Assembly (NCBI GenBank): GCA_021776055.1
Contig: JAJFGP010000088.1
Location: 4,642 to 68,641, forward strand
DNA length: 64,000 nucleotides
Origin: Kiloniellaceae bacterium
GTDB taxonomy: Bacteria > Pseudomonadota > Alphaproteobacteria > Kiloniellales > J153
Direction: 5' to 3'
Below are positions 8,164 to 55,814 of the stretch, piece by piece (the stretch's first letter is position 1; every line of letters begins with the position of its first letter). The position numbers and the translations under genes were made by a program. The notes beneath the pieces were generated by a model. The model searched no databases and had not been told where the DNA came from. It saw only the letters and a program-made list of their open reading frames with translations.

Positions 8164-9428
8164 TGGTCCGCTCCGCAAACAAAAAGGAGGCGGCCGCCGA
8201 GTCCAACCTTAGCTATGAGGACGCGAAGCGTCTGGCGCAGAATTCTGATATGTTGGTGCGCGCCCAGCTTGCCGGGCGCGACGATATCCGGCCCGAGATT
8301 CTCTACTACCTGGCGGAAGACGTCTCGCCCGAGGTGCGTTGCCAGATTGCCGCCAACCGGCACACGCCCGGTCAGGCGGACCTGTTGCTGGCGCGCGATG
8401 CGGACGAGGCGGTTCGCCGCCAGTTGGCACACAAGATCGCGCTGCTCATGCCCGATCTCAGTCCCGACCAGCTGCGCCAGGCGCACGAACATGTGGTCGA
8501 GGTCTTGGAGGTCTTGGCGCAAGACCAGGCAACCCGCGTGCGCCAGATCCTCTCCGATACGCTCAAGGACCTGGCCTCCGCCCCGCCCGGCGTCATTCAG
8601 CGCCTGGCCCGCGATGCCGAGGAGGTGGTCGCGTGCCCAGTGCTCGAATTCTCACCGCTGCTGAGCGATGAGGACCTCATTGAAATCATCAATGGTGGCG
8701 AGCCCGCTCCTGGTAAGCTGCGGGCCGTCTCGCGTCGCCATGGCGTCGGCGAGCAGGTGGCTGACGCTATCGTTGCGACCGAAGAGCAAAGTGCTATTTC
8801 CGAGTTGCTGGCGAACAGCAGCGCGCAGATTCGCGAGGAAACGTTGAACGGCCTGGTGGATGCGGCCCTCGACGTGACGGCCTGGCACGAGCCGTTGGTC
8901 AAGCGGCCAAGCCTGCCCAAGGCGGCGATGTTAAGGCTTGCAGGATTCGTCGCCGGATCGCTCCTGGAGTTGTTGCAAGCGCGCAAGGACCTGGACAAGA
9001 AAACGGCGCGTGCTGTCGCCAAGGAAGTGGAGCGGCGCCTGAAGGATGGCGGCGGTGCCGCCGAAAAGAAAGCCGAACCGCCCGAGGCGCGGGCCAAGCG
9101 CCTGCATGACGCGGGTGGCCTGGAAGACGACGTTCTGGCCCGTGCCATGAACAGCGGCGACCGGGACCTGGTCCGTCATGGACTGGCGGTGCGCGCGGAA
9201 TTACCGGTCGGCCTGGTAGATCACATTCTGGCGGCGCGCAGCGCCAAGGGCGTAACGGCGCTAGCCTGGAAAGCCGGTTGCGCCATGCGCTTCGCCAGCC
9301 AGTTGCAGCTGCGCATGGGGGGTATCGCCCCGTCGCAGGTACTCAACGCCCGCGCCGGGACCGACTATCCCCTAACACCCGACGAAATGAACTGGCAGAT
9401 CGAATTTTTTCAAAGCCTCGCCGGCTAG
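8163..9428 (+). CDS. DUF2336-like HEAT/ARM-repeat protein
   Basis: LSYEDAKRLAQNSD..RPEILYYLAEDVSPEVRCQIAANRHTPGQADLLLARDADEAVRRQLA matches my recollection of the alphaproteobacterial DUF2336 family. Its ATG overlaps the cyclase TGA by 1 nt. Confidence 0.7.
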   Translation: MVRSANKKEAAAESNLSYEDAKRLAQNSDMLVRAQLAGRDDIRPEILYYLAEDVSPEVRCQIAANRHTPGQADLLLARDADEAVRRQLAHKIALLMPDLSPDQLRQAHEHVVEVLEVLAQDQATRVRQILSDTLKDLASAPPGVIQRLARDAEEVVACPVLEFSPLLSDEDLIEIINGGEPAPGKLRAVSRRHGVGEQVADAIVATEEQSAISELLANSSAQIREETLNGLVDAALDVTAWHEPLVKRPSLPKAAMLRLAGFVAGSLLELLQARKDLDKKTARAVAKEVERRLKDGGGAAEKKAEPPEARAKRLHDAGGLEDDVLARAMNSGDRDLVRHGLAVRAELPVGLVDHILAARSAKGVTALAWKAGCAMRFASQLQLRMGGIAPSQVLNARAGTDYPLTPDEMNWQIEFFQSLAG

Positions 9429-9448: not shown

Positions 9449-10357
9449 TCAGCCGCGTCGGACGCGGGTGCCGATGCCGCGGTCGGTAAAGATTTCCAGT
9501 AGTAGCGAATGCGGCATCCGTCCATCCAGGATGACCGCCGCCTCGACCCCGTTTTCCACCGCGCTCACGCACGTCTCCAGCTTCGGGATCATGCCGCCTG
9601 AAACGGTACCGTCCTTACGCAGGGCGTGGATCTGTTCCACGGTCAACTCCGGGACCAACTCACCCTCTTTGTCGAGGACGCCGGTTACATCGGTAAGCAG
9701 CAGCAAGCGCGCCGCGCCGAGGGCCGCGGCAACTGCTCCGGCCACCGTATCGGCGTTTATGTTGTAGGTCTCGCCCTCGGCACCGACACCGATCGGGGCG
9801 ATGACCGGTATCATGCCGGACTGTTTCAGGGCGACCAGGGGGCTCGGATCGATCGTCTCGGGCTCGCCGACGAAACCCAGGTCCAGGACCCGCTCGATGT
9901 TCGAATTCTCGTCCCGCTGCGTCCGGCTCAATCGCTTGGCGCGGATCAGGTTGCCGTCCTTGCCGGACATGCCGATGGCGGTGCCGCCGGCGGCGTTGAT
10001 GGCGCTGACGATCTGCTTGTTGATGGTGCCCGAGAGGACCATCTCGACCACCTCGACGGTGGCGGCATCGGTAACTCGCAGGCCGTCGATGAATTCGCTC
10101 TTGATCTTAAGCCGTTCCAGCATCTGGCCGATCTGCGGACCGCCGCCATGCACAACGACCGGGTGAATGCCGACCTGCTTCATCAACGCGATATCGCTGG
10201 CGAACAAGCCGGCCAACTCCGCATCGCCCATGGCGCTGCCACCGTACTTGATGACGATGGTCCGGCCGGCATAGCGGCGCATGAACGGCAGCGCCTCGGT
10301 GATCGTCCGGGCGGCGTGCAGCCATTGCTTGGTATCGGTGAAGTTCCGTTGCGTCAT
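9449..10357 (-). CDS. argB: acetylglutamate kinase
   Basis: [24 protein letters not shown]...[10 protein letters not shown]. Confidence 0.95.
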
Positions 10358-10366
10358 GGCCTAAGT

Positions 10367-11035
10367 TTAACTTTGAGTCGCCGGGGCCGCCAGCGTGGCA
10401 AGCAGGGCGCGCAAATCGGCGATGCCCGGGCCGCGCAGGGCGCTGGTCGCCACGCAGCCAGGATAGGCCGCCGGGTGCTTGGTCAGAGTCTCCGTTGTGC
10501 TTTGGACAAGTGTCGCGCACGCCTCGGGTCCGATTTTGTCGGCCTTGGTGAAGATGATCTGATAGGACGCGGCAACCTCGTCCAGTTCGGCCATGATATC
10601 GAGGTCGCTGGGTTTTAGGCCATGCCGCGCGTCTATCAAAAGGCAGATGCGCCGAAGCTGTGGCCGCCCTTTTAAGTAACGCCGGGTCAACTCGCTCCAT
10701 TGCTGCACGTCCGTCTTCGCGGCGCGGGCGTAGCCATAACCCGGCAGGTCGACGAGGATCAACCGGTTGTCCAGGCCGAAGAAATTGATTTGCCGCGTAC
10801 GGCCCGGCGTCTGCGAGGTGCGGGCGAGGGATTTGCGTCCGGTCAGCGCGTTCAGCAAGCTCGACTTGCCGACATTCGAACGACCGGCGAAGGCGACCTC
10901 GGGCAAACCAAGTTCAGGCAACTGTTCTTCCTGCGCCGCCGCCGTCAGGAACGTGCATTCGCGCGCAAACAACAATCGGCCGGCGGCCAACGCCTCCGGC
11001 GCTATTGTCTCGAGGGGGGCTGCCTGCGCGTTCAT
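10367..11035 (-). CDS. engB: ribosome biogenesis GTP-binding protein YihA/EngB
   Basis: GRSNVGKSSLLNALTGRK...LVDLPGYGYA...TKADK; conserved position next to yidC. Confidence 0.9.
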   Translation of the reverse strand: MNAQAAPLETIAPEALAAGRLLFARECTFLTAAAQEEQLPELGLPEVAFAGRSNVGKSSLLNALTGRKSLARTSQTPGRTRQINFFGLDNRLILVDLPGYGYARAAKTDVQQWSELTRRYLKGRPQLRRICLLIDARHGLKPSDLDIMAELDEVAASYQIIFTKADKIGPEACATLVQSTTETLTKHPAAYPGCVATSALRGPGIADLRALLATLAAPATQS

Positions 11036-11042
11036 GCGGGTA

Positions 11043-12803
11043 TTAGGTTTTTCCGGCCTTGCGGCCCACGGGCATGCCGACGCGCCGCATGATGAAGTAT
11101 TGCTGCGCCATCGAGAGCATGTTGTTCCAGGTCCAATAGACCACCAGACCGGCCGGGAACTGCGCCAGCAGGAAGGTGAAGATGATCGGCATGAACATGA
11201 AAATCTTGGCCTGAATGGGGTCCGGCGGCTGCGGGTTCAAGCGCTGCTGCAAGAACATGCTCAGGCCCATGGCAAGCGGCCAGACACCGATGTTGATAAT
11301 CTCCAGGGGCCCAAGGTTCGGCACCATCCAGGGCAGCAGACCGAAACCGTTGAGGATCGATGTCGGATCGGGCGCCGATAGGTCCTGAATCCAGCCAAAG
11401 AACGGCGCATGGCGCATCTCGATGGTTACGAACATGACTTTGTAGAGCGCGAAGAACACCGGAATCTGAACGACGATGGGCAGGCAGCCGGATACCGGGT
11501 TAGCGCCTTCCTTCTTATAGAGCGCGGCCATTTCTTGATTGAGCCGTTGCTTGTCCTCCTTGAAGCGCTCGCGCAACTCGACCATCTGCGGCTGCAACTT
11601 GCGCATCTTCGCCATGGACGCATAGGATTTATTGGCCAGCGGGAAGAACACCAGCTTCACGCCCACGGTCAGGATCAGAATGGCGACGCCGAAGTTGCCG
11701 ACCAGCCCGGTAATATAGTGCAGCGCATAGAACAGCGGCTTGGTGAGGAAATAAAACCAGCCGAAATCGACCGACAGGTCAAAACGGGCGATGCCGAGAC
11801 GATCGCGGTAATCGTCGAGGCCTGTGACAACTTTGGCGCCCGCGAACAGGCGGCTCGTTGTCTCGGCGGCGCCGCCCGCCGGCACTTTCAAGGCCTCGTA
11901 AAGGAAATCCGTCTGATATTTGTCGGCGCCACTCGATCCGTCATAGAGGAAGCGGGTGTCGACCGTCTTTTCCTGATCGGGAACCAGGGCAACCATCCAG
12001 TACTTGTCGGTAATGCCCAGCCAGCCGCCCGTTGTCTGCTGCGCGATCTGGCGGTCGTCCTTTAGATCGCTATAGTCGATCTCCTGGAGGGTGTCATCGA
12101 AGACGCCCAGCAGGCCCTCATGCAGAATGTAAAAGCCCAGAATCGGCGGCGTCCCCGTGCGCGAGATCAGGCCATACGGTGCCAGCGATACGGCAGTATC
12201 CGAGCTGTTCACGACCCGCTGCGCGACCGTGAACATATAGTGCTCGTCGATCTCGTAGGTGCGCTCGAAGCGCAGTCCCTGGCCGTTGTCCCACTTCAAA
12301 GTCACCGGCCGGCCCGGCGACAGCACGTTGCTGTTCGCCTGCCACACGGTATCGGCACCCGGTAAGGTTACGCCGGGGGCGATCGACGACCAGCCGAAAT
12401 CGGCAAAATACGGCTTCTCGCCTTCCGGCGGTGAAAGCAGCACGATATTCTTGCTCTCCGGCTCGATGGTTTCCCGGTACTCCAGCAGGGTCAGATCGTC
12501 GATCCTGCCGCCGGTCAGGGCGATGGAACCGGTCAGTGTCGGAGTCGAGATGCTCACGCGGGCGGATGCCGCCAGCGCTTCGGCTCGCGTCAGTGCCCCT
12601 GGCACGCCGCTGGACGCAGCGCCCGACGCGCCCGGCGGGGCCATCGCCGTGGGCGCGGTGCTGCCCGCTTGCGGAGTGGGGGTTGTCTGCTCGGCGACCT
12701 GATTGGCGGTTTCGACCCGTTGCGGCTCGACCACCAGGAACTGGAAAGTCAGCAGGATGGCGAGCGAAAGGACAATCGCCAGAATGAGGTTGCGTTGGTC
12801 CAT
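11043..12803 (-). CDS. yidC: membrane protein insertase YidC
   Basis: 586 aa; large periplasmic domain, then the GCLPIVVQIPVFFALYKV and NPQPPDPIQAKIFMFMPIIFTF motifs. Confidence 0.95.
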   Translation of the reverse strand: MDQRNLILAIVLSLAILLTFQFLVVEPQRVETANQVAEQTTPTPQAGSTAPTAMAPPGASGAASSGVPGALTRAEALAASARVSISTPTLTGSIALTGGRIDDLTLLEYRETIEPESKNIVLLSPPEGEKPYFADFGWSSIAPGVTLPGADTVWQANSNVLSPGRPVTLKWDNGQGLRFERTYEIDEHYMFTVAQRVVNSSDTAVSLAPYGLISRTGTPPILGFYILHEGLLGVFDDTLQEIDYSDLKDDRQIAQQTTGGWLGITDKYWMVALVPDQEKTVDTRFLYDGSSGADKYQTDFLYEALKVPAGGAAETTSRLFAGAKVVTGLDDYRDRLGIARFDLSVDFGWFYFLTKPLFYALHYITGLVGNFGVAILILTVGVKLVFFPLANKSYASMAKMRKLQPQMVELRERFKEDKQRLNQEMAALYKKEGANPVSGCLPIVVQIPVFFALYKVMFVTIEMRHAPFFGWIQDLSAPDPTSILNGFGLLPWMVPNLGPLEIINIGVWPLAMGLSMFLQQRLNPQPPDPIQAKIFMFMPIIFTFLLAQFPAGLVVYWTWNNMLSMAQQYFIMRRVGMPVGRKAGKT

Positions 12804-12807
12804 CGCG

Positions 12808-13083
12808 TCATCCGCTCCTGGGGCCTAGAGTTTTGCTCCGCCCGGAGAGCAGGGGATCGAGGTGTTCGGGAACCGGGTCGTAGCCGTCGCCGCCCCATGG
12901 GTGGCAGCGGGCGATACGCATTGCCGTAAGCCAACCGCCGCGCAGCGCGCCGTGCCGGTGCAAGGCTTCGCACGCATAGTGCGAACAGCTCGGCAGGTAT
13001 CTGCAACTCGTGGGCAGGATCGGCGACAGCGTCCACTGGTAGACGCGGACGACGCCGATCAAAAGATTCTTTGCCAGATTCAT
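12808..13083 (-). CDS. yidD: membrane protein insertion efficiency factor YidD
   Basis: [61 protein letters not shown]. Confidence 0.9.
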
Positions 13084-13973: not shown

Positions 13974-14717
13974 ATGATGTGTGAGCCGAGCCAGGCTTCC
14001 AAGACAAAGGGACACTTGTTCCGCCGGTTCGTGCCGGTGCTGGTCCTGGCGGCCGGCCTGGTTATGTTTTTCGTCCTCGGCCTGGACCACTATGTGAGTT
14101 TCGAGGCTCTACAGGAAAACCGAGAGTGGCTGCGCGCCCAGGTGGAAGCGAACGAGGCCATGGCCGCCATGGCCCTGATTGCCGTCTATGCTCTGGTGAT
14201 CGCGTTTTCTCTGCCCGCCGGCGCTCTTCTGACCATCGCCGCCGGGTTTCTGTTTGGCACGGTGGTGGCGGCATCGTGTGTGGTCGTGGGAGCGACCGTG
14301 GGCGCCGCCGCTGTGTTCTTGGCGGCCCGCACGGCTTTTGCCGACATTCTGCGGGCCAAGGCGGGTGCGGGAATGCGCCGCATGGAGGCGGGTTTCCGCG
14401 AGAATGCCTGGAATTACCTGCTGGTGCTGCGTTTGATCCCGATCTTTCCCTTCTGGCTGGTCAATCTGGTTCCCGCGTTCCTGGGCGTGTCCTTGCGCAC
14501 CTACGTAACGGCGACATTTATCGGCATCATCCCGGGCACCGCGGTCTATGCCAGCTTGGGCAACGGCCTTGGCGCTATCTTCGCGGCGGGCGAGACACCC
14601 GATCTGCGCATCATCTTCGATCCCGAGGTGCTTCTCCCTATCCTTGCCTTAGCCGTCTTGGCGGTGGTTCCGGTTGTCTATAAGAAGGTGAAGGCGCGTA
14701 ACGCCACCTCGCGCTAG
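13974..14717 (+). CDS. TVP38/TMEM64 (DedA-related) family membrane protein
   Basis: 247 aa polytopic protein; FSLPAGALLTIAAGFLFG and LRLIPIFPFWLVNLVPAF motifs. Confidence 0.75.
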   Translation: MMCEPSQASKTKGHLFRRFVPVLVLAAGLVMFFVLGLDHYVSFEALQENREWLRAQVEANEAMAAMALIAVYALVIAFSLPAGALLTIAAGFLFGTVVAASCVVVGATVGAAAVFLAARTAFADILRAKAGAGMRRMEAGFRENAWNYLLVLRLIPIFPFWLVNLVPAFLGVSLRTYVTATFIGIIPGTAVYASLGNGLGAIFAAGETPDLRIIFDPEVLLPILALAVLAVVPVVYKKVKARNATSR

Positions 14718-14739
14718 GACACAACCCAAAGAGTTCAGG

Positions 14740-16164
14740 ATGCCCACGATCATCGAACCGGACATCTGCGTCATCGGTGCCGGCTCCGCCGGACTCTCGA
14801 TCGCCGCCGGGGCTTCGCAAATGGGCGCCGAAACGGTCTTGATCGAAAAGGGCCGGATGGGCGGCGATTGCCTTAACTATGGGTGTATCCCCTCGAAAGC
14901 CCTCTTGGTTGCGGCCAAGGCCGCGCACGCGCACACGCGGATGTCAGAGCTGGGCCTGCGCGCCAAGGCGCCGGAAGTCGACTTTGCCGCCGTTTCCGCC
15001 CACGTTCACGGGGTCATCGATACCATCGCCCCGCATGACTCCGTTGAGCGGTTCGAGGGTCTTGGTGTCCGAGTAATCCAGGCCGCCGCGACTTTTACCG
15101 GCCCGCGAGAGGTATCGGCCGGCGATCTGCGGATTCGTGCCCGGCGCTTCGTCGTCGCCACCGGCTCGCAGCCCCTGGTGCCGCCGATCCCCGGTCTAGC
15201 GTCCACGCCCTATCTGACCAACGAGACGGTCTTCGATCTAACCGAGCTGCCGGCACATCTCATCGTCATTGGCGGTGGCCCGATCGGCTGCGAGCTAGGT
15301 CAGGCGTTCCGCCTGCTTGGCGCGCAGGTAACCATCGTTGAGATGGCCAGCATCCTGCCCAAGGACGATCCCGAGCTGGTCGACGTGGTCCGCCAGCGCC
15401 TGCGCGCCGACGGCATCGCGTTGCGCGAGGGCAGCCGTGTGGTGCGTGTCGCCAAGGCGGGCACCGGCATCGAGGTGACGGTCAACAGCGGCGAGGGCGA
15501 GACGGCGCTAACCGGCAGCACCCTGTTGCTCGCGGCGGGCCGCCGGCCCGGAGTCGAGGGCCTGGGTCTCGAAGCCGCGGGCATCGCCTATGACCGCCGG
15601 GGAATCACGGTGGATGCCCGCCTGCGCACCAGCAACAAGCGGGTCTTCGCCGCCGGCGATGTGAGCGGTGGCTATCAGTTTACCCATGTTGCCGGCTATC
15701 ACGCCGGAATCGTGCTGCGCAATGCCCTGTTCCGCTTGCCGGCCAAGGCCGATACACGCGCGGTTCCGTGGGTCACCTACACCGATCCGGAATTGGCGCA
15801 CGTGGGCCTGGATGAGGCGGGCGCACGCCAGGCGCACGGCAAGATCCGCATCCTGCGCTGGCCGTTCGCCGAGGTCGATCGGGCCCTGGCCGAGCGCCGG
15901 ACGGACGGCTTCATCAAGGTTATCGCCACGCCGCGCGGCAAGATTCTCGGTGCCACCATTGTCGGGGCCCATGCCGGTGAAGGCATCTTGCCGTGGGTGC
16001 TGGCGTTAACGAAAGGGCTTAACCTCTCCCATATGGCCCAAATCATCGCGCCCTATCCGACCTTGGGCGAGATTAGCAAGCGGGTGGCCGGTAGCTTCTA
16101 TACGGATCGGCTGTTCAGTGCCGGAACCAAGCGTCTGGTCCGCTTTCTCGCTCGCTTCGGCTGA
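14740..16164 (+). CDS. FAD-dependent pyridine nucleotide-disulfide oxidoreductase (dihydrolipoyl dehydrogenase / mercuric reductase-like)
   Basis: ICVIGAGSAG dinucleotide fold; redox-active GGDCLNYGCIPSKALL; C-terminal dimerisation domain. Confidence 0.85.
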   Translation: MPTIIEPDICVIGAGSAGLSIAAGASQMGAETVLIEKGRMGGDCLNYGCIPSKALLVAAKAAHAHTRMSELGLRAKAPEVDFAAVSAHVHGVIDTIAPHDSVERFEGLGVRVIQAAATFTGPREVSAGDLRIRARRFVVATGSQPLVPPIPGLASTPYLTNETVFDLTELPAHLIVIGGGPIGCELGQAFRLLGAQVTIVEMASILPKDDPELVDVVRQRLRADGIALREGSRVVRVAKAGTGIEVTVNSGEGETALTGSTLLLAAGRRPGVEGLGLEAAGIAYDRRGITVDARLRTSNKRVFAAGDVSGGYQFTHVAGYHAGIVLRNALFRLPAKADTRAVPWVTYTDPELAHVGLDEAGARQAHGKIRILRWPFAEVDRALAERRTDGFIKVIATPRGKILGATIVGAHAGEGILPWVLALTKGLNLSHMAQIIAPYPTLGEISKRVAGSFYTDRLFSAGTKRLVRFLARFG

Positions 16165-16356
16165 GTTGGTTCCTACTCTCTCTTTCACGGAAATTTGAAC
16201 CGAATACTGGGAACGTGAGTCGAGATTGGGCAACCGAGAGGGCATTATTTCACTATAGACGGTATCCGGACCGTCTGGCCTGGGACCCGAAGGGTTCCCC
16301 GGACTCCGGAACCCCAATGGCCGCCTAGCCGGCCCATCTTTATCTTGGAGGCGTGG

Positions 16357-16653
16357 ATGTTAAAGAAAACTTTTGTGGCGCTGAGCGTTGCGACCCTGGC
16401 CACTGGCGCGGCGGTCCTGCCGACAGCTTCGGCCAAGGCGGATACGCCGGTGCAGATCGCGGCGTCGGATAAGTCGGCGTGCAACCCGTGTAATCCTTGT
16501 GCGGCGAAGAACCCGTGCAATCCGTGTAATCCTTGTGCGGCGAAGAATCCGTGCAATCCTTGTGCGGCGAAGAACCCGTGCAATCCGTGCAATCCTTGCG
16601 CGGCCAAGAATCCCTGTAACCCGTGCAACCCCTGCAAAGCCAAGAGCGACTAG
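16357..16653 (+). CDS. secreted cysteine-rich CNPC-repeat protein (98 aa, 14 Cys)
   Basis: ggagg SD 5 nt upstream of ATG 16357. Sec-type signal [29 protein letters not shown], then [12 protein letters not shown] x ~4.5. Differences between repeat units are almost all synonymous. Confidence 0.7.
16480..16635 (+). repeat. in-frame tandem coding repeat (36-nt unit, one 27-nt unit)
   Basis: tgcaayccgtgyaatccttgygcggcsaagaayccs repeated head to tail inside the CDS. Confidence 0.9.
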
Positions 16654-16680
16654 CCTGCGCACGGCTAATCTTGGTTTGCT

Positions 16681-16773
16681 GAGGTGCCGGCGCGTCCGCT
16701 GCTTGACCGAACCCTCCCTCTCCCTTGGTCGGTAGCGGCGCGCCACCTCGGCGCCTCTAGAGCTTGATCTAGA
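16681..16773 (+). ncRNA. structured 3' region after the CNPC gene: long stem enclosing a hairpin with a CCCUCCCUCUCCC loop, then a tctaga hairpin. Candidate 3'UTR-derived sRNA
   Basis: Hand-folded: 16681-16694 pairs with 16739-16749; the inner stem 16705-16710/16725-16730 closes a 14-nt C/U loop; tctaga-gcttga-tctaga at 16756-16773. No U-tract seen. Confidence 0.3.
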
Positions 16774-16868
16774 GATTTCGCGATATGTGGCAGTGGCCGC
16801 CCGTCGCGTCAGTGCCGCCCCGGCAAAGGGCGGCCCATTCTGTTGCGACCCGTGCTATAAATCCCTCT

Positions 16869-18269
16869 ATGACGAGCAAGAAACTTAGCCTGCCGCCGTT
16901 GGCCAAGAGCCTATCGGCGCGGCTTCTGTTGCTGACGATATCCTTTGTGATGCTGGCCGAGGTGCTCATCTACGCGCCCTCGATCGGCCGGTTTCGCCTG
17001 GTTTACCTACAGGAACGCCTGGCCGCCGGGCATCTGGCGGTCCTGGCCCTCGAGGCGTCGCCCGATCAGGTCATCGGCGAGGACCTGGAGCGCGAGTTGC
17101 TCAAGCACGTCGGTGCCTATTCGGTTGCCTTGACCCGGCCCAACCAGGGCAAATTGATGTTGATGACCACGACGCCGGGGCCGATCGATGCCAGCTACGA
17201 TCTGCGTGCGGAAACGTTCTTTGGCCTGATCGGCGATGCGGCCGTAACTCTGCTCGGCGATGGCGAGCGGGTGCTGCGCGTGGTCGGCCTCTCGCCGCAG
17301 GACCCGGCCATTCAGGTCGAGGTGGTTCTCGAAGAGGGCCCCATGCGGAGCGAGATGGTCGGCTATTCCGAGCGCATCCTTGCCCTGTCCCTGGTCATCT
17401 CGCTATTCACGGCGGCATTGGTGGATCTCAGCCTGCATCTGCTCACCGTGCGTCCGATGCGGCGTATTACGGACAGCATGGCCCGCTTTCGCGACGATCC
17501 CGAGGATGCCTCCGGTATCATTCGTCCGTCGTCACGCAGCGACGAGGTTGGCATCGCCCAACGCGAACTGGCAACAATGCAGGAAGGTCTGCGCCGGGCG
17601 TTCCAGCAAAAAGCCCGCTTGGCGGCGCTGGGCACGGCCGTTACCAAGATCAATCACGATTTGCGGAATATCCTGGCGACCGCACGCCTGGTCTCTGACC
17701 GGCTGACGAGCAGCGACGATCCAGAGGTTCGGCGTGTTACCCCAACATTGGTTGCCGCCATCGACCGCGCGGTCAACCTGTGCGCCCAGACCCTGAACTT
17801 CACCCGCGAAGGTGCCCCGGTTGTCGAGCAATGCCGTTTCGACCTGGGCGCGCTGGTCGCCGATGTGGGCGGTACGCTGGAAGGGCAGGTCAATGGCAAG
17901 GCCGTGCTGCAATGCGCCCTGGACGGCCACTACCAGATCGAGGCCGACCGCGAACAGCTACACCGGGTGCTGTCCAATCTGGGACAGAACGCGATCCAGG
18001 CCGGTGCTACCCGTGTCGAAGTCAATGCCCGCCACGACGGCGATCACATCGTCATCGAGGTATCCGACAACGGTCCCGGTCTAGCACCGCGCGCCCGCGA
18101 GCAGCTTTTTCAGCCCTTCACCGGATCGTCACGGCCCGGCGGTACGGGCCTCGGCCTGGCCATCGCCCGCGAGTTGATGCGGGCGCACGGCGGCGATATC
18201 CGTCTGGAACGCTCAACCGGCGAAGGCACCTGCTTCCGCCTGACGTTGCCCAGCTCGCCAGCGCACTAG
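16869..18269 (+). CDS. membrane sensor histidine kinase (HAMP-HisKA-HATPase); no response regulator adjacent
   Basis: Two TM segments, H-box KINHDLRNILA, N-box LSNLGQNAIQA, G-boxes DNGPGL and GTGLGLAI. ATG at 16869 gives MTSKKLSLPPLAK. Confidence 0.85.
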   Translation: MTSKKLSLPPLAKSLSARLLLLTISFVMLAEVLIYAPSIGRFRLVYLQERLAAGHLAVLALEASPDQVIGEDLERELLKHVGAYSVALTRPNQGKLMLMTTTPGPIDASYDLRAETFFGLIGDAAVTLLGDGERVLRVVGLSPQDPAIQVEVVLEEGPMRSEMVGYSERILALSLVISLFTAALVDLSLHLLTVRPMRRITDSMARFRDDPEDASGIIRPSSRSDEVGIAQRELATMQEGLRRAFQQKARLAALGTAVTKINHDLRNILATARLVSDRLTSSDDPEVRRVTPTLVAAIDRAVNLCAQTLNFTREGAPVVEQCRFDLGALVADVGGTLEGQVNGKAVLQCALDGHYQIEADREQLHRVLSNLGQNAIQAGATRVEVNARHDGDHIVIEVSDNGPGLAPRAREQLFQPFTGSSRPGGTGLGLAIARELMRAHGGDIRLERSTGEGTCFRLTLPSSPAH

Positions 18270-19969
18270 TCACCCAGGGCGACCCCTTCGCGCCGGGGGT
18301 CGGCGCCGCCGACCAACCCGCTCTTCGTTATCGCAATACCGTGCAGGCCGCTGTTCAGGGACCTGAGCTTCACCTCATGGCCCAACGCCGCCAATCCGGC
18401 CGCCAGCGCTTCCGACGATGTGCCTTCCTCCACGTCGGTGCCGCCATTGCGGTTGACCACATTGGGCAGATCGATCGCCGCCTGTATGTCCAGGCCCCAA
18501 TCCAACGTCGCGACCAACGATTTGATCACATAGCCGATGATCCGGCTGCCGCCGGGCGAGCCGACGACCAGCGCCAGCTTATCGCGGTCATCGAGCACGA
18601 TGGTCGGGGACATGGAACTGCGCGGCCGCTTGCCGGCCTGGACCCGGTTGGCGACGGGCCGGCCGTCCACTTCGGGGCGGAAGGAGAAGTCGGTCAGCTC
18701 GTTGTTGAGCATAAATCCGGCCGCCATGACCCGCGAGCCGAAGGCATTTTCGATGGAGGCGGTCATGGACACGCCATTACCCTCGGCATCCACGACGACC
18801 AGATGGGTTGTCGATGGCGGGTCGTGCTGTATCGGCATGGCCCCATTTTGCGTGGGCAGGCCCGGCTCCGCCTTGCCGAGGCTGGCATCGGGCGAAACCA
18901 AGGCGCCGCGGCGCGTCAGATATCCGGGATCGAGCAGATCGTCGACCGGCACCGGCACGAAATCCGCATCGGCCAAGAATCGGTTGCGGTCGGCGAAGGC
19001 CAAGCGGCTGGCCTCGGCAATCAAATGCCAGGCTGCAACCGAATCCGAGGCCAACGCCGGCAAATCGAAGCCTTGCAGAATCCCCAGAGTCTGCAACACC
19101 GCGACGCCACCCGAGGTTGGCGGCGGCATGCCGCAAATTCGCCAGGCCCGATAGGGCGCGCACAAGGGGTTCCGTTGCTTGGCTTCATAGCCGGCCATAT
19201 CGGCCAGACTGAGTTGGCCGGGACTTGTCGCTGCACCCTGCACGGCGGCGACGACGGCCTCGGCGATCGGACCGGTGTAAAACGCATCGGCACCGTCCCG
19301 GGCGATACGGTGCAATGTCTCGGCGAAGGCCGGGTTGCGCAACCGAGTGCCTACGGCAAGGGGCGCCCCGCTTGCGTCATGGAAATAAGCGGCGGCTATC
19401 GCGTCGGTCTTAAGATATTTGTCCCGGGCGATCAGCGCGTGCAGGCGGGGCGAGACCGCGAAGCCCTCCTCGGCCAAGCGGATGGCCGGCTCGAACAATG
19501 CCGCCCAGGGCAGGCGGCCATGCGCCTTGTGCGCCAGATCGAGCATGCGCACCAAGCCGGGAACGCCGACCGAGCGGCCACCGACCACCGCTTCCCAAAA
19601 TCCCATCGGTTCGCCGTCGGGGCGCAGGAACAGATCCGGGCCGACGGCGGCCGGTGCGGTCTCACGGCCGTCGTAGGCCGTGACGTCATTGCTTTTGCCG
19701 TCGTAGTGAAGCAGGAACGCGCCGCCGCCAATGCCTGCCGATTGCGGTTCGACCAGATTGAGTACCAGTGACGTGGCGATGGCGGCATCGATGGCCGACC
19801 CACCGGCGCGCAATATTTCTTGTCCTGCTTTGGCTGCCAGGGGATTGGCGGCAGCGACCATCTGTTTGTCTGCCGCCGCAACCGGGATGGTAGCGGTGAC
19901 CAGTAGGACACCCAACGACACCGCGGCGCCGGCGCGGCAAAACGAATGGAGATCATGAAAGCTCAGCAT
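18266..19969 (-). CDS. ggt: gamma-glutamyltransferase
   Basis: 567 aa with signal peptide; autoprocessing region PPSTTHLVVVDAEGNGVSMTASIENAFGS; GGSRII. Confidence 0.95.
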   Translation of the reverse strand: MLSFHDLHSFCRAGAAVSLGVLLVTATIPVAAADKQMVAAANPLAAKAGQEILRAGGSAIDAAIATSLVLNLVEPQSAGIGGGAFLLHYDGKSNDVTAYDGRETAPAAVGPDLFLRPDGEPMGFWEAVVGGRSVGVPGLVRMLDLAHKAHGRLPWAALFEPAIRLAEEGFAVSPRLHALIARDKYLKTDAIAAAYFHDASGAPLAVGTRLRNPAFAETLHRIARDGADAFYTGPIAEAVVAAVQGAATSPGQLSLADMAGYEAKQRNPLCAPYRAWRICGMPPPTSGGVAVLQTLGILQGFDLPALASDSVAAWHLIAEASRLAFADRNRFLADADFVPVPVDDLLDPGYLTRRGALVSPDASLGKAEPGLPTQNGAMPIQHDPPSTTHLVVVDAEGNGVSMTASIENAFGSRVMAAGFMLNNELTDFSFRPEVDGRPVANRVQAGKRPRSSMSPTIVLDDRDKLALVVGSPGGSRIIGYVIKSLVATLDWGLDIQAAIDLPNVVNRNGGTDVEEGTSSEALAAGLAALGHEVKLRSLNSGLHGIAITKSGLVGGADPRREGVALGD

Positions 19970-44756: not shown

Positions 44757-45473
44757 CTATGGCATTCTCTGCTGGATAGCCGATTTCGGCCAGCGCCGCC
44801 AGCCGGCCAGTTCGGCTTCATCGTCGCTGCAGAACAAGCGCTCGCCGCGGGCTTGGTCGACTTCGATGTCTGCGTGCTCGGGATCTGAGCGGACTAAATA
44901 CACCCGCTCACCCTTGTTACTCACAATTCCCTTGATATCGCAGGCTTGACTGGGCTCGTCGTTCTGAGTTTTCAGGCGGTGCCCCGCCTTCCATTCCCAA
45001 GGCAGGACGAAATCACCCCGCCAGATTCCAAGCCTACTTTGTTTCGAGTCGCTTTCAGCCCGGCGATAGATTGCGAGCGCGGATGGTTGCGCGACCGCGT
45101 AACCACGTCGCAACATTGCCTCGGCCAAATCGACCAAGCCGACGGAGCAGATCTGACCATCGTCTTTCGGATCGACCGGCGTGGGCTGGCAGTCAACTGG
45201 CCCGCTTCCGACAAGTTTCGTCAGCGCCAAAGCGGCTTCGTAACCGCACCGATATCGTTTGGCACCATTGAAGCAAAATTGCCCTAGTTCTGGAGCATCA
45301 ATGCCATATAGCCGCACGGTTTTGTCATTTACCTCAAGGGTGTCGCCGTCGACGACGGCAGCCGCGGACGTATGCGCCTCGGCGGCGGCGTGCTCCGCGA
45401 TGACGGAGATAACCAAAACTAGGAAGATGACAAAGAACCAGGGCAAAGACCGCCTCTCGAACCGGGTTTTCAT
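44757..45473 (-). CDS. thermonuclease (SNase-like) family protein, ExoI-like, secreted
   Basis: Signal/TM MKTRFERRSLPWFFVIFLVLVISVIA; VVDGDTLEVNDKTVRLYGIDAPE; C-terminal CDIKGIVSNKGERVYLV...GERLFCSDDEAELAGWRR. GC visibly lower than in the neighbours. Confidence 0.8.
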   Translation of the reverse strand: MKTRFERRSLPWFFVIFLVLVISVIAEHAAAEAHTSAAAVVDGDTLEVNDKTVRLYGIDAPELGQFCFNGAKRYRCGYEAALALTKLVGSGPVDCQPTPVDPKDDGQICSVGLVDLAEAMLRRGYAVAQPSALAIYRRAESDSKQSRLGIWRGDFVLPWEWKAGHRLKTQNDEPSQACDIKGIVSNKGERVYLVRSDPEHADIEVDQARGERLFCSDDEAELAGWRRWPKSAIQQRMP

Positions 45474-53993: not shown

Positions 53994-55814
53994 ATGAAGT
54001 TGCTTTTCCGCCGCTTCCGGCCCGTGTTCAAGAATGCACTGGGTATAGCCGTTGTGCTTTCTCTTGTTCTTGTGTTCGACCCTCTCTCGGTTGCAAGCAA
54101 CGCTAGTCGGGCATCCGTAGCGCTGTTCTACTGGCTTGTCGCTCCACGCTATCCGGCGCCGTTCGACGATCCGAGCTCCAGCTCTGTGTTCGATGACAAG
54201 ACTGGGATCGCGGTGATCATCATCAACGATGAAAGTCTTGCCAGCATTGCGCGCGAACCGACGACCGGCGCCGTGGCGTACGTTCCTAACGACAGAGAGT
54301 CGGACAAGCTTGCAGGCAACGGCGAAAGGGTAACGTGGCCACCCCCCTTTGCCATCCATGAGCTGGTAATCAACAAAATCTTCGAGTCGGCAGTGCCAAG
54401 GGCGTTGTTCATCGATTTCGGATTCTTCGACGACCGCGACAAGACCGCCACAGCTAAATTCGCCCAGACTTTGAAAAAATACGCAGTGCCAAGAAAGGAG
54501 TTTGACGAATTCCAGGCATGTGTGACCGCACTGCCTGAACTTTCAATGACGGATGCGGCAGCCTGCACGCGCTGGGCGGGCCGGGCGCCAATTTTTCTTC
54601 CTCACGCTGGCGCATCGGCGCCAAAGCATTTACAAGTCCTGCCGGCCTTGCGGGAGGCTGTTACCGCTCTCGTCTCCTCTGATTACATCGGGGAGAATTC
54701 TGACAGCTACAACCTCTACGATTTTTACGACTGCGCGACATATTCTCCTTCGGCGGCATCGGCCATGTATCTAGCGAGTGGTGTCTTGCCTGGGTTTTCG
54801 GCCGCTGATTGCGACGTGGGCAGAAAAGCTCCCCGAGTATCCGTTTTTTGGTCCGATTGGGGCGATGCCGAGCGTGGCCGCGGCAGCTTTGCCTGCCGAG
54901 CACTGCGCAAGACCTGGCTCGACCGGGTAGGGCAGATTGCTCGTTTCGCAATTTACGATAGGCCAAAAGAACTGGTCATTTCTGCTCTTTCCGCCATTGG
55001 CGTTATGCCTGTGGATGTAGATCCAGTGAGAGTCCAGTACCAAATCTGTCCCCCACACTTGACAGTTAGCGCACACGAATTCTTGGCCGACGATACAGGT
55101 TTGATGGGAGCCGTGCTGCACAATCGGTATGTCTTTTACGGCGGCAACTTTGTCATGGCTGACGATTTGATTCGACCGCCGACCCACAATGCTATTCCGG
55201 GCGTTTATGCGCATGCGATGGTGTTGGACAATCTGCTGCAGGGACAGACGAAAAATGTGGAGTCTCGTTGGTCCAATGTGCTGGCCCTTGTCCTGACCTT
55301 ATCGGCGATAGTGGTTGCTGCAATGTGCTCTGCTGTTACTTGGGCGGGTATTGAGCGTGTGGCATCGAAGGATGACGGCCATGCGGCACGCAGCGGCGCA
55401 CGATGGTCAGCCCTGCAACACCGCAGCGGCGCGGTCTCGCAGAACCGGCTGTGGAGACAGGGTGGGGATGAAATTTTGGAAAGACGGACAAGCGTGTGGT
55501 TGGAAGTCAAAGAGCTCGTGGTCCGCATGACGCCAGCGCGTTTGCCGTTGTTGGCCTCGCCCTACGACCGACTGTGTCTTTGGGTATCGGCTTCTTGGGT
55601 ATCGGCGTGGGGCAAGTCGGTGCGCCGCGGAATACACGTTCTGGGATTGACCCTTTTTGGTGTTGTCGTATGTCTGGTGACCGTTAGCGCGTTGGCGGCC
55701 ATTGGCTTCTTCTGGCTCGATCTGGCCCCCATCAATATTGTCGGCATATTTTCTTTTGTTGGGTTTCACGGATTGCTTCGCGGACTTTCGTCTCTGCTTG
55801 AAGTGCTAATTTGA
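53994..55814 (+). CDS. CHASE2 domain membrane protein without a recognisable output domain
   Basis: N-terminal TM helix; IAVIIINDESL, WPPPFAIHELVINKIF, ALFIDFGFFDDRD, YVFYGGNFVMADDLIRPPTHNAIPGVYAHAMVLDNLLQG, then several TM helices. No kinase, cyclase or GGDEF motifs follow. Confidence 0.7.
   Translation: MKLLFRRFRPVFKNALGIAVVLSLVLVFDPLSVASNASRASVALFYWLVAPRYPAPFDDPSSSSVFDDKTGIAVIIINDESLASIAREPTTGAVAYVPNDRESDKLAGNGERVTWPPPFAIHELVINKIFESAVPRALFIDFGFFDDRDKTATAKFAQTLKKYAVPRKEFDEFQACVTALPELSMTDAAACTRWAGRAPIFLPHAGASAPKHLQVLPALREAVTALVSSDYIGENSDSYNLYDFYDCATYSPSAASAMYLASGVLPGFSAADCDVGRKAPRVSVFWSDWGDAERGRGSFACRALRKTWLDRVGQIARFAIYDRPKELVISALSAIGVMPVDVDPVRVQYQICPPHLTVSAHEFLADDTGLMGAVLHNRYVFYGGNFVMADDLIRPPTHNAIPGVYAHAMVLDNLLQGQTKNVESRWSNVLALVLTLSAIVVAAMCSAVTWAGIERVASKDDGHAARSGARWSALQHRSGAVSQNRLWRQGGDEILERRTSVWLEVKELVVRMTPARLPLLASPYDRLCLWVSASWVSAWGKSVRRGIHVLGLTLFGVVVCLVTVSALAAIGFFWLDLAPINIVGIFSFVGFHGLLRGLSSLLEVLI

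Follow-up and report, generated by a model that had tools for sequence, protein, structure and literature searches.

A cysteine-ladder protein of a Kiloniellaceae bacterium as a candidate free form of a periplasmic multi-thiol arm fused elsewhere to c-type haem domains

The DNA analysed in this work is a stretch of 64,000 nucleotides (nt) from a Kiloniellaceae bacterium (assembly GCA_021776055.1, contig JAJFGP010000088.1, positions 4,642 to 68,641), hereafter named the window and numbered from its first letter. It contains a small gene for an exported protein (named the CNPC protein after its repeats), whose mature part is dominated by a ladder of regularly spaced Cys pairs and which is located between a TVP38-reductase gene pair and the gene of a sensor kinase (Table 1). 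A first-pass annotation made from the DNA letters alone had drawn attention to this gene, to its good Shine-Dalgarno (SD) sequence and to a Sec signal with an ASA/KA cleavage motif, and both signals are borne out by the sequence features. The signal peptide displays an n-region (MLKK), a 17-residue hydrophobic h-region and a c-region (PTASA) with an A-x-A site, and its predicted removal at ASA/KA would leave a mature protein of ∼72 residues that ends with …CNPCKAKSD. On the basis of this Sec-type signal, the CNPC protein is very probably exported to the periplasm.

Table 1. Positions of the CNPC gene, its signals and its neighbours in the window
Feature	Position	Strand	Details and basis
TVP38/DedA-type (VTT domain) membrane protein	13974..14717	+	PF09335, E 1.4e-22, 80.8 bits (cut-off 33.9)
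Class-I FAD (pyridine-nucleotide) disulfide oxidoreductase, CLNYGC	14740..16164	+	NF004991, 494.8 bits (cut-off 620)
Conserved upstream element TCACGGA-N5-TTGAACC-N12-AACGTGAGTCG-N20-CATTAT	16184..16248	+	∼65 nt; candidate promoter/operator
Short GC hairpin and T-rich run just 5' of the SD	16319..16344	+	Terminator-like scan match; weak evidence
SD sequence GGAGG	16347..16351	+	5 nt before the ATG; read from the sequence
CNPC-ladder protein, coding sequence	16357..16653 (stop included)	+	98 residues; open reading frame and sequence, homologues, dN/dS
Sec-type signal peptide, residues 1-26	16357..16434	+	Predicted cut ASA/KA; sequence features
Non-repeat start of the mature protein, 15 residues (…VQIAA…)	16435..16479	+	Conserved hydrophobic-Q/E-hydrophobic-A-A motif before the repeats
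Cys ladder, 57 residues, 14 Cys	16480..16650	+	CNPCNPC/CNPC units joined by AAKNP; sequence, repeat analysis
Weak terminator-like hairpin, 5-bp stem	16651..16677	+	Directly after the stop codon; not above chance
HAMP-HisKA-HATPase sensor kinase	16785..18269	+	Pfam/NCBIfam matches

The earlier description of the mature part as an almost uninterrupted ladder of C-x2-C units holds for the repeat region itself, but has to be amended for the conserved non-repeat segment with which the mature protein opens. This lead-in ends in VQIAA, with the variants IELAA, IQLAA and LMLAA, and is found in small CNPC proteins as well as in the haem fusions described below. Cys makes up 25% of the ladder with a CxxC/CxxCxxC spacing, and neither His nor Met is present. 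At the Cys frequency of 10 long open reading frames (ORFs) of the window (0.93%), the probability of at least 14 Cys among 57 residues is 2e-16, and no other real ORF of the 64 kb has a comparable Cys density. A second Cys-rich stretch around position 55166 was discarded as an off-frame reading within another gene. The 13 NPC units are encoded by eight different 9-mers (Tandem Repeats Finder periods of 9, 27, 36 and 63) and, in agreement with what had been noted at first, every difference between them is synonymous.

The CNPC sequence is a real gene whose peptide is under strong purifying selection. A search of 5.8 billion protein clusters returned 888 homologues at E ≤ 1e-3; among the best 120 listed, most are 85 to 115 residues long with the same signal peptide, a (V/I)Q(I/L)AA lead-in and CNPC(NPC)AA(K) repeats. 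Besides, scanning one genome per species yielded more than 598 matching stretches, 513 of which were confirmed, so that at least 513 loci exist in species-representative genomes, and a profile search of 1.84 billion representatives of clusters at 50% identity matched 550 clusters at E ≤ 1e-3, of which 181 reach E ≤ 1e-10. The family that the first-pass annotation wished to see mapped is thus a large one. Taking as its mark the lead-in followed by at least four NPC units joined by AA(K), the window protein belongs to it with 13 such units. Compared with 14 syntenic orthologues, the repeats show proportions of non-synonymous and synonymous differences (pN and pS) of 0.02-0.14 and 0.57-1.06, respectively, and a dN/dS ratio of 0.02-0.11 where computable, bearing in mind that synonymous sites are saturated and that alignments of repeats are not strictly positional. 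A GGAG(G) motif is present 5-9 nt upstream of the same ATG in 17 of 17 syntenic orthologous loci, the signal peptide is of the MLKKT…LP.A type with P22 and A24 invariant or nearly so (alignments A1 and A2), and the C/N/P columns of the repeats are invariant across the 15 sequences of A1 and at least nearly invariant across the 93 of A2.

These data bear on the possibility that the region is a slippage-made simple repeat that is open by chance. Four of its six frames are open, hence openness by itself does not argue for a gene, and the exact 98-residue protein is absent from a collection of 15 billion proteins in which the reductase and the kinase of the same contig are present. However, the SD sequence and the signal peptide are conserved together with this frame only, in hundreds of homologues, and the amino acids remain unchanged where synonymous sites are saturated. 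The frame was assigned because the SD sequence, the signal peptide, the homologues and the dN/dS ratio all fix the same one; the ORFs of the alternative frames had no exact match in the protein collection, a look-up limited by non-ATG starts. A non-coding repeat is therefore extremely improbable, and the initial proposal of selection on the peptide rather than slippage is confirmed by the dN/dS ratio and by in-frame conservation in hundreds of genomes. Loss of the frame in relatives, named at the outset as an argument against the gene, is not what is found: the repeat is kept in frame as a protein. Public gene calls take CNPC repeats antisense or off-frame, with products like HGLQGF… or RRTPATPV… (L001:4574-5257(-), L005:911-1525(+), L006:6126-6287(-), L090:7496-7909(-), and 16245-16746 in the window). 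Annotations thus contain too few members of the family, as gene callers often overlook these genes or read them in a wrong frame or on the opposite strand.

The family of the CNPC-ladder protein is undescribed. In Pfam and NCBIfam, the only matches at E ≤ 1 were zf-CXXC (E 0.065) and Amelogenin (E 0.11), neither of them above noise, and nothing relevant was found in the searchable literature for CNPC motif strings or for DUF6969, a frequent neighbour in other genomes. AlphaFold2 (AF2), supplied with a 93-sequence alignment, modelled only the signal part as a helix, with a mean predicted local distance difference test (pLDDT) score of 46.5 and values below 50 in the ladder, which is predicted to be disordered. 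The mature protein is thus probably disordered until it is oxidised or loaded. Binding of a Fe-S cluster by the ladder was considered and rejected, since the signal is of Sec and not of twin-arginine type and the protein would therefore cross the membrane unfolded. Outside Alphaproteobacteria, relatives are found in Gammaproteobacteria, SAR324, Nitrospinota and Entotheonella, while cultured carriers are Pelagibius marinus, Pelagibius sp. Alg239-R121 and Denitrobaculum tricleocarpae. The closest relative of the window is the metagenome-assembled genome OFTM104, which carries both a window-type locus (L010) and, on another contig, a P460 fusion (L054).

In a number of relatives, the repeats are fused to folded domains. 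An ORF scan of 85 fetched loci revealed 56 small free CNPC proteins and two kinds of haem fusion. In 34 ORFs of 340-470 residues, two long CNPC blocks and a …C.VPRL… linker precede a C-terminal cytochrome-P460-like domain with an invariant FCxxCH. Some of these domains reach the gathering score of PF16694 (28.9 and 38.0 bits versus 27), and their profile aligns over its full length, CxxCH included, to the cytochrome P460 structures 8gar and 2je2. In 13 further ORFs, CNPC blocks are found on both sides of a SoxA/TsdA-like mono-haem domain that scores up to 47 bits against PF21342 (cut-off 27). Its profile aligns weakly to Rhodovulum SoxA (1h31_A), in which Cys114 and His80 are matched by the invariant Cys of QFC(M/L) and the His of CxxCH, respectively; we take these two SoxA residues to be the axial ligands of haem 1. 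Other fusions involve LysM (P0375, P0391), OmpA_C (P0483) and a YceI-like periplasmic domain (P0408). Moreover, the repeats of L020 (3580-4275, C-terminal half) are attached to a small exported domain (VDTWCY…CAxWCA…GIP) without Pfam, NCBIfam or PDB match, which also occurs free in four cluster loci as VDTWCY…HHQCAVWCA.GGIP (e.g. L036:1982-2416(-)). Finally, variant ladders of CGACGAKKGCGAC (CGAC) are fused to the same P460-like domain with the …C.(I/V)PRL… linker kept (L162:1399-2508(-), L169:3466-4737(-)), which shows that the family conserves its CxxC spacing and AAK spacer, not Asn-Pro.

Unbiased clustering of the neighbouring ORFs and tblastn with named queries in the 85 loci also revealed a recurrent gene cluster, which as a whole appears to be undescribed. 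It consists of genes for DUF302, a YeeE/YedE-type transporter, a 163-residue exported and weakly cupredoxin-like protein, a protein resembling the formylglycine-generating enzyme (FGE), a CNPC-haem fusion, a small CNPC protein and DUF6969. Examples are L001, L029, L033, L036, L046, L048, L062, L066, L070 and L090, among others, with a range that covers Rhodospirillales, Hyphomicrobiales, Gammaproteobacteria and other groups. DUF6969 is the commonest neighbour (40/85 loci, median distance of 184 bp), followed by the FGE-like gene (31/85 loci within 10 kb, median of 150 bp), the transporter (19/85) and DUF302 (14/85). Three loci (L044:6145-6807 and two others) also encode an exported TlpA/ResA-like thiol:disulfide oxidoreductase, at a distance of ∼250 bp from the CNPC gene. 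In the FGE-like proteins, a hydrophobic N-terminus is combined with an invariant GGSWDDKGCG(V/I)CRPAARH motif, the CxxC of which is presumably located in the loop of the Cys pair of true FGE, although the PDB alignments stop short of the Cys loop and cover true FGE over residues 130-237 only; the best PDB match is ToxD. DUF6969 has no signal peptide, displays invariant H-x-H and H-x-H-x-H strands, is modelled by AF2 with a pLDDT of 87 and has no PDB relative, either by sequence or by Foldseek on this model. It is a large family (6150 matches), and the CNPC-DUF6969 pair also occurs alone. In the reciprocal direction, 80 metagenome DUF6969 loci (L092-L171) were inspected; among the 57 with enough upstream sequence, a CNPC gene is directly upstream in 10 and anywhere in the locus in 18, which makes the association less exclusive. 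The FGE-like gene is beside DUF6969 in ∼36 of the 80 loci, and DUF6969 is often paired with it and with a class-I or P460-like cytochrome even when no CNPC gene is nearby. The window CNPC gene is a stand-alone paralogue, outside the cluster of haem fusion, FGE-like, DUF6969 and YeeE genes, within 64 kb. A companion of CNPC-P460 genes in 13 loci, an SNase-like exported protein, has a homologue in the window (44985-45356(-), 38% identity over 128 residues), 28 kb from the CNPC gene.

From these associations, we infer that the ladder in the window is the free-standing copy of a multi-thiol arm that is fused elsewhere, often on both sides, to catalytic c-type haem domains. These appear to be of two kinds, a SoxA/TsdA-like domain with a conserved Cys at the position of an axial ligand and a cytochrome-P460-like domain, and the small free copy seems to be usually encoded beside the haem fusion in other bacteria. 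By analogy with SoxAX-SoxYZ, we tentatively favour a free, disordered periplasmic arm that would carry sulfur or another chalcogen, or swap redox equivalents with such haem enzymes. Sulfur species, or another chalcogen, could be bound by the ladder thiols in S-S-linked adducts or bridges, with oxidative coupling by the haem domain; in an equivalent version, the thiols could trade dithiol/disulfide equivalents with the haem. The small CNPC protein would act as a diffusible carrier, and the YeeE/YedE-type transporter together with DUF302 might bring the product into the cell. This preference is motivated by several precedents and neighbours. SoxA-family Cys-ligated cytochromes oxidatively join thiosulfate to another thiolate, such as that of the SoxY carrier arm entering the active site (PMC4423706), Sulfitobacter sox clusters contain DUF302 and YeeE/YedE genes (PMC11034169), and sulfur import by YeeE-like SoxT proteins has been reported (PMC11582611). 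In addition, a TlpA/ResA-like reductase near the CNPC gene would suit thiols that need to stay reduced. The proposal is also relevant to the source lineage, as OFTM104 combines a window-type locus with a P460 fusion. In a broader formulation, which is possible though doubtful, the ladder would be the working arm of an undescribed periplasmic system of c-type haem, FGE-like CxxC enzyme, DUF6969 and YeeE-type transporter; its row of thiols would carry, store or relay sulfur or another chalcogen, or be converted to a poly-modified exported peptide, and the window protein would be its diffusible form. Among the functions initially suggested, those of a redox relay and of a modified precursor are made more concrete by the haem fusions and the cluster.

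Several observations weigh against a carrier or redox arm. The P460-type fusions outnumber the SoxA-like ones (34 versus 13), and the known chemistry of P460 deals with nitrogen, not sulfur. The SoxA alignment (E 2.8e-4) falls mainly on the non-catalytic first haem domain of SoxA, and His58, Met62 and Met86 are also invariant in the SoxA-like domain and are alternative candidates for the sixth haem ligand. The periplasm is oxidising, and closure of the CxxC pairs by DsbA would be a likely outcome there. The LysM, OmpA and YceI fusions are at least as compatible with a fixed periplasmic sink as with a mobile carrier. As for gene context, neither haem fusion, transporter, FGE-like gene nor DUF6969 was found in the 64-kb window, no canonical sox, sqr or dsr genes were recognised near CNPC genes, where annotation is limited and covers cluster representatives only, and DUF6969 and the FGE-like gene often occur without a nearby CNPC gene, which is present in only 18 of the 57 informative metagenome loci.

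The same thiols could instead, close to the metal or metalloid buffer suggested at first, soak up or buffer thiophilic metals and metalloids in the periplasm (Cu(I), Zn, Cd, Hg, As(III)). In such a sponge, the ladder would fold around metal-thiolate clusters in a metallothionein-like manner, the fused haems would supply electrons, for instance for the reduction of Cu(II) to Cu(I), and the LysM/OmpA fusions would anchor the sink in the cell wall. Cys content, spacing and disorder without ligand all agree with such a role, as they do with the small, very Cys-rich SmtA/BmtA metallothioneins and periplasmic metal buffers, and the attachment to peptidoglycan-binding LysM and OmpA, and to YceI, points in the same direction. 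From the cluster come an exported protein with weak resemblance to cupredoxins and an FGE-like enzyme whose CxxC is presumably at the Cu site of true FGE, and relatives are found in Entotheonella and other metal-exposed marine lineages. There is also a weak similarity to the CXXC zinc finger (window protein, E 0.065; a 261-residue relative, E 1.8e-4; both below cut-off). This eukaryotic domain (PF02008) shares the CxxCxxC spacing, but the CNPC protein stays under its gathering score, is bacterial and exported, and has no DNA-binding context, which suggests that the similarity is probably compositional. However, cop, czc, mer, ars and P-type ATPase genes are not recurrent in the neighbourhoods, the ladder lacks His and Met, the usual periplasmic Cu(I) ligands, and no metallothionein, HMA or copper-storage family of Pfam or NCBIfam is matched. 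Unlike SmtA/BmtA, the CNPC protein is exported rather than cytoplasmic, contains no His, has a regular 9/12-residue repeat and has relatives fused to haem, LysM and OmpA domains. The reductase next to it in the window is not a MerA and is not linked to the CNPC gene. A metal sponge would also leave the specific partners unexplained (SoxA-like and P460-like catalytic haems, YeeE-type transporter). We regard this function as the main rival of the carrier or redox arm, though a rather unlikely one.

Alternatively, the protein might be a Sec-exported substrate of Cys-modifying enzymes, the FGE-like protein and/or the cytoplasmic His-rich DUF6969, and yield a product resembling a ribosomally synthesised and post-translationally modified peptide (RiPP) or a cross-linked material, such as a metallophore or aldehyde-Lys cross-links. 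The formylglycine motif has a C-x-(P/A)-x core to which both CNPC and CGAC conform, the exported FGE-family protein with its conserved Cys pair and DUF6969 with its His-rich strands and confident model without PDB match are the close and frequent neighbours described above, and the conserved lead-in before the repeats is reminiscent of leader peptides. Nevertheless, neither enzyme is encoded in the window, where the absence of an adjacent modifying enzyme had been correctly noted, and most DUF6969 and FGE-like genes have no CNPC gene nearby. In contrast to the CxPxR substrates of FGE, the repeats have no Arg, position +4 being N or A and never R, and no sulfatase is involved; the FGE-like loop has a CxxC instead of a CxxxxC, and the catalytic loop is not part of the alignment to true FGE. 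Ladders of 200-250 residues fused to folded haem domains are also unlike RiPP cores. Among modified peptides, bufferins and HvfA-type proteins (modified by MNIO enzymes) come closest, with a Sec signal followed by Cys-bearing repeats and, for the CNPC protein in other genomes, putative metalloenzymes alongside. Yet the CNPC protein matches no BufA, DUF2282 or HvfA model (0 NCBIfam families), its candidate enzymes are FGE-like and DUF6969 proteins, and no DUF692/MNIO homologue was detected in the window or in ∼170 loci by tblastn with a single query of limited sensitivity (a 238-residue Legionella fragment), nor was a DUF2063 gene found in the window or the fetched loci. A modified product is thus quite improbable.

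Compared with known systems, the CNPC protein would work most like a SoxY-type carrier or a metallothionein, while belonging to neither by its sequence. As in the SoxYZ/SoxAX and TsdA systems, a flexible periplasmic Cys arm would be the acceptor for a SoxA-family haem, to which it is even fused in relatives, and a YeeE-type transporter and DUF302 are encoded near CNPC genes as they are in some sox clusters. Unlike SoxY, it has no sequence similarity to this carrier, no GGCGG C-terminus, no SoxZ partner and no match to SoxY or SoxZ models; SoxY carries one Cys whereas CNPC arms carry dozens, no sox genes were seen beside CNPC genes, and most fusions are P460-like rather than SoxA-like. The repeat, its fusions and the cluster are absent from Pfam, NCBIfam and the searchable literature, and we rate them as outside the known kinds, with a function deduced from context. 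If the carrier or redox arm is correct, a periplasmic thiol-based module exists in marine Alphaproteobacteria and several other phyla outside all current families, and this single module is attached to two catalytic haem folds within a cluster that largely comprises domains of unknown function. It would provide testable roles for DUF6969, a distinct FGE-like subfamily and the P460-like and SoxA-like mono-haem domains, and possibly a new handling of sulfur, selenium or soft metals outside the cytoplasm. As there are cultured carriers (Pelagibius, Denitrobaculum), these ideas can be tested directly.

Upstream of the CNPC gene, the conserved element reads TCACGGA-N5-TTGAACC-N12-CGTGAGTCG-N20-CATTAT and contains the inverted repeat CTCACG…CGTGAG. 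Its core is invariant in all 12 loci with the reductase-CNPC gene order and is absent where the CNPC gene is absent, and it may be the promoter or operator of this gene. No Rfam match was found at E ≤ 1 between positions 13000 and 19000, this element included. The promoter and terminator scan of the region returned no more matches than shuffled sequences; a hairpin resembling the one in front of the SD sequence is visible in several orthologous loci.

The genes that surround the CNPC gene in the window are probably bystanders. The upstream pair had been described as a conserved duo, which is indeed the case: both proteins are fused in plasmids of Burkholderia glumae ('bifunctional TVP38/TMEM64 family protein/FAD-dependent oxidoreductase'), and their genes overlap by 8 nt in the Legionella pneumophila plasmid NZ_CP021280.1 (L089). 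In the latter, the pair adjoins genes for a CDP-alcohol phosphatidyltransferase, DUF547 and an NlpC/P60 hydrolase, a lipid-like context, with a DUF692 gene and a small hypothetical gene at 3 kb. The reductase had also been called mercuric-reductase-like. The resemblance stands, including the redox-active CxxxxC in the FAD domain (GGDCLNYGCIPSK), but the enzyme is not a MerA, because it ends with …RLVRFLARFG without a C-terminal Cys pair and scores 377.4 bits against TIGR02053 (cut-off 454.45); it was therefore discarded as a mercuric reductase partner. For the kinase, the earlier impression of an orphan is maintained, as tblastn with CheY, OmpR and NtrC receivers, a search of limited sensitivity, detected no receiver domain in the window at E ≤ 1.

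A functional unit of these genes, in which the peptide would be a periplasmic co-sensor of the kinase or a target reduced via TVP38 and the reductase, could be suspected from their common strand, the short gaps of 192 and 131 nt on either side of the CNPC gene, the genuine pairing of TVP38 and reductase, and the kinase that always follows the CNPC gene in the window lineage (18 loci, median of 144 bp). However, the order TVP38-reductase-CNPC-kinase next to yidC-yidD-rnpA is found in 17-18 loci that all come from Kiloniellales-like relatives, and since they share this one housekeeping synteny block, the 18 kinase-linked loci are not independent observations. Beside yidC/rnpA, Sinorhizobium meliloti and a 3.5-Mb metagenome contig (L086) have a TVP38-reductase-kinase triad that lacks the CNPC gene, with gaps of only 75 and 88 bp, respectively, in its place, and five loci have TVP38, CNPC and kinase genes without the reductase. 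The CNPC gene was thus inserted into an older triad. Considering also that this gene has its own conserved upstream element and that the family lies in a different cluster in all other lineages, a unit with the window neighbours is very improbable. The suspected link between the peptide and its neighbours does not hold, and the CNPC gene and the TVP38-oxidoreductase pair are each found without the other. Conservation of the triad extends from Rhizobiaceae to Kiloniellales, and the 'orphan' kinase may therefore go with the TVP38-reductase duo rather than with the CNPC gene.

The S. meliloti triad (L088, CP090106.1, 492779-501339) adjoins yidC/rpmH; this replicon is labelled pSymB, yet it measures 3.7 Mb and carries yidC and rpmH. 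Finally, a gamma-glutamyltranspeptidase gene is present 3' of the kinase in the window (18266-19969(-)) and in nine related loci; in L086, a phytochelatin-synthase-like gene is found in this region too (8257-8982(-) and 10229-11425(-) were noted there). These genes may reflect a thiol-peptide theme around the kinase, or plain synteny.

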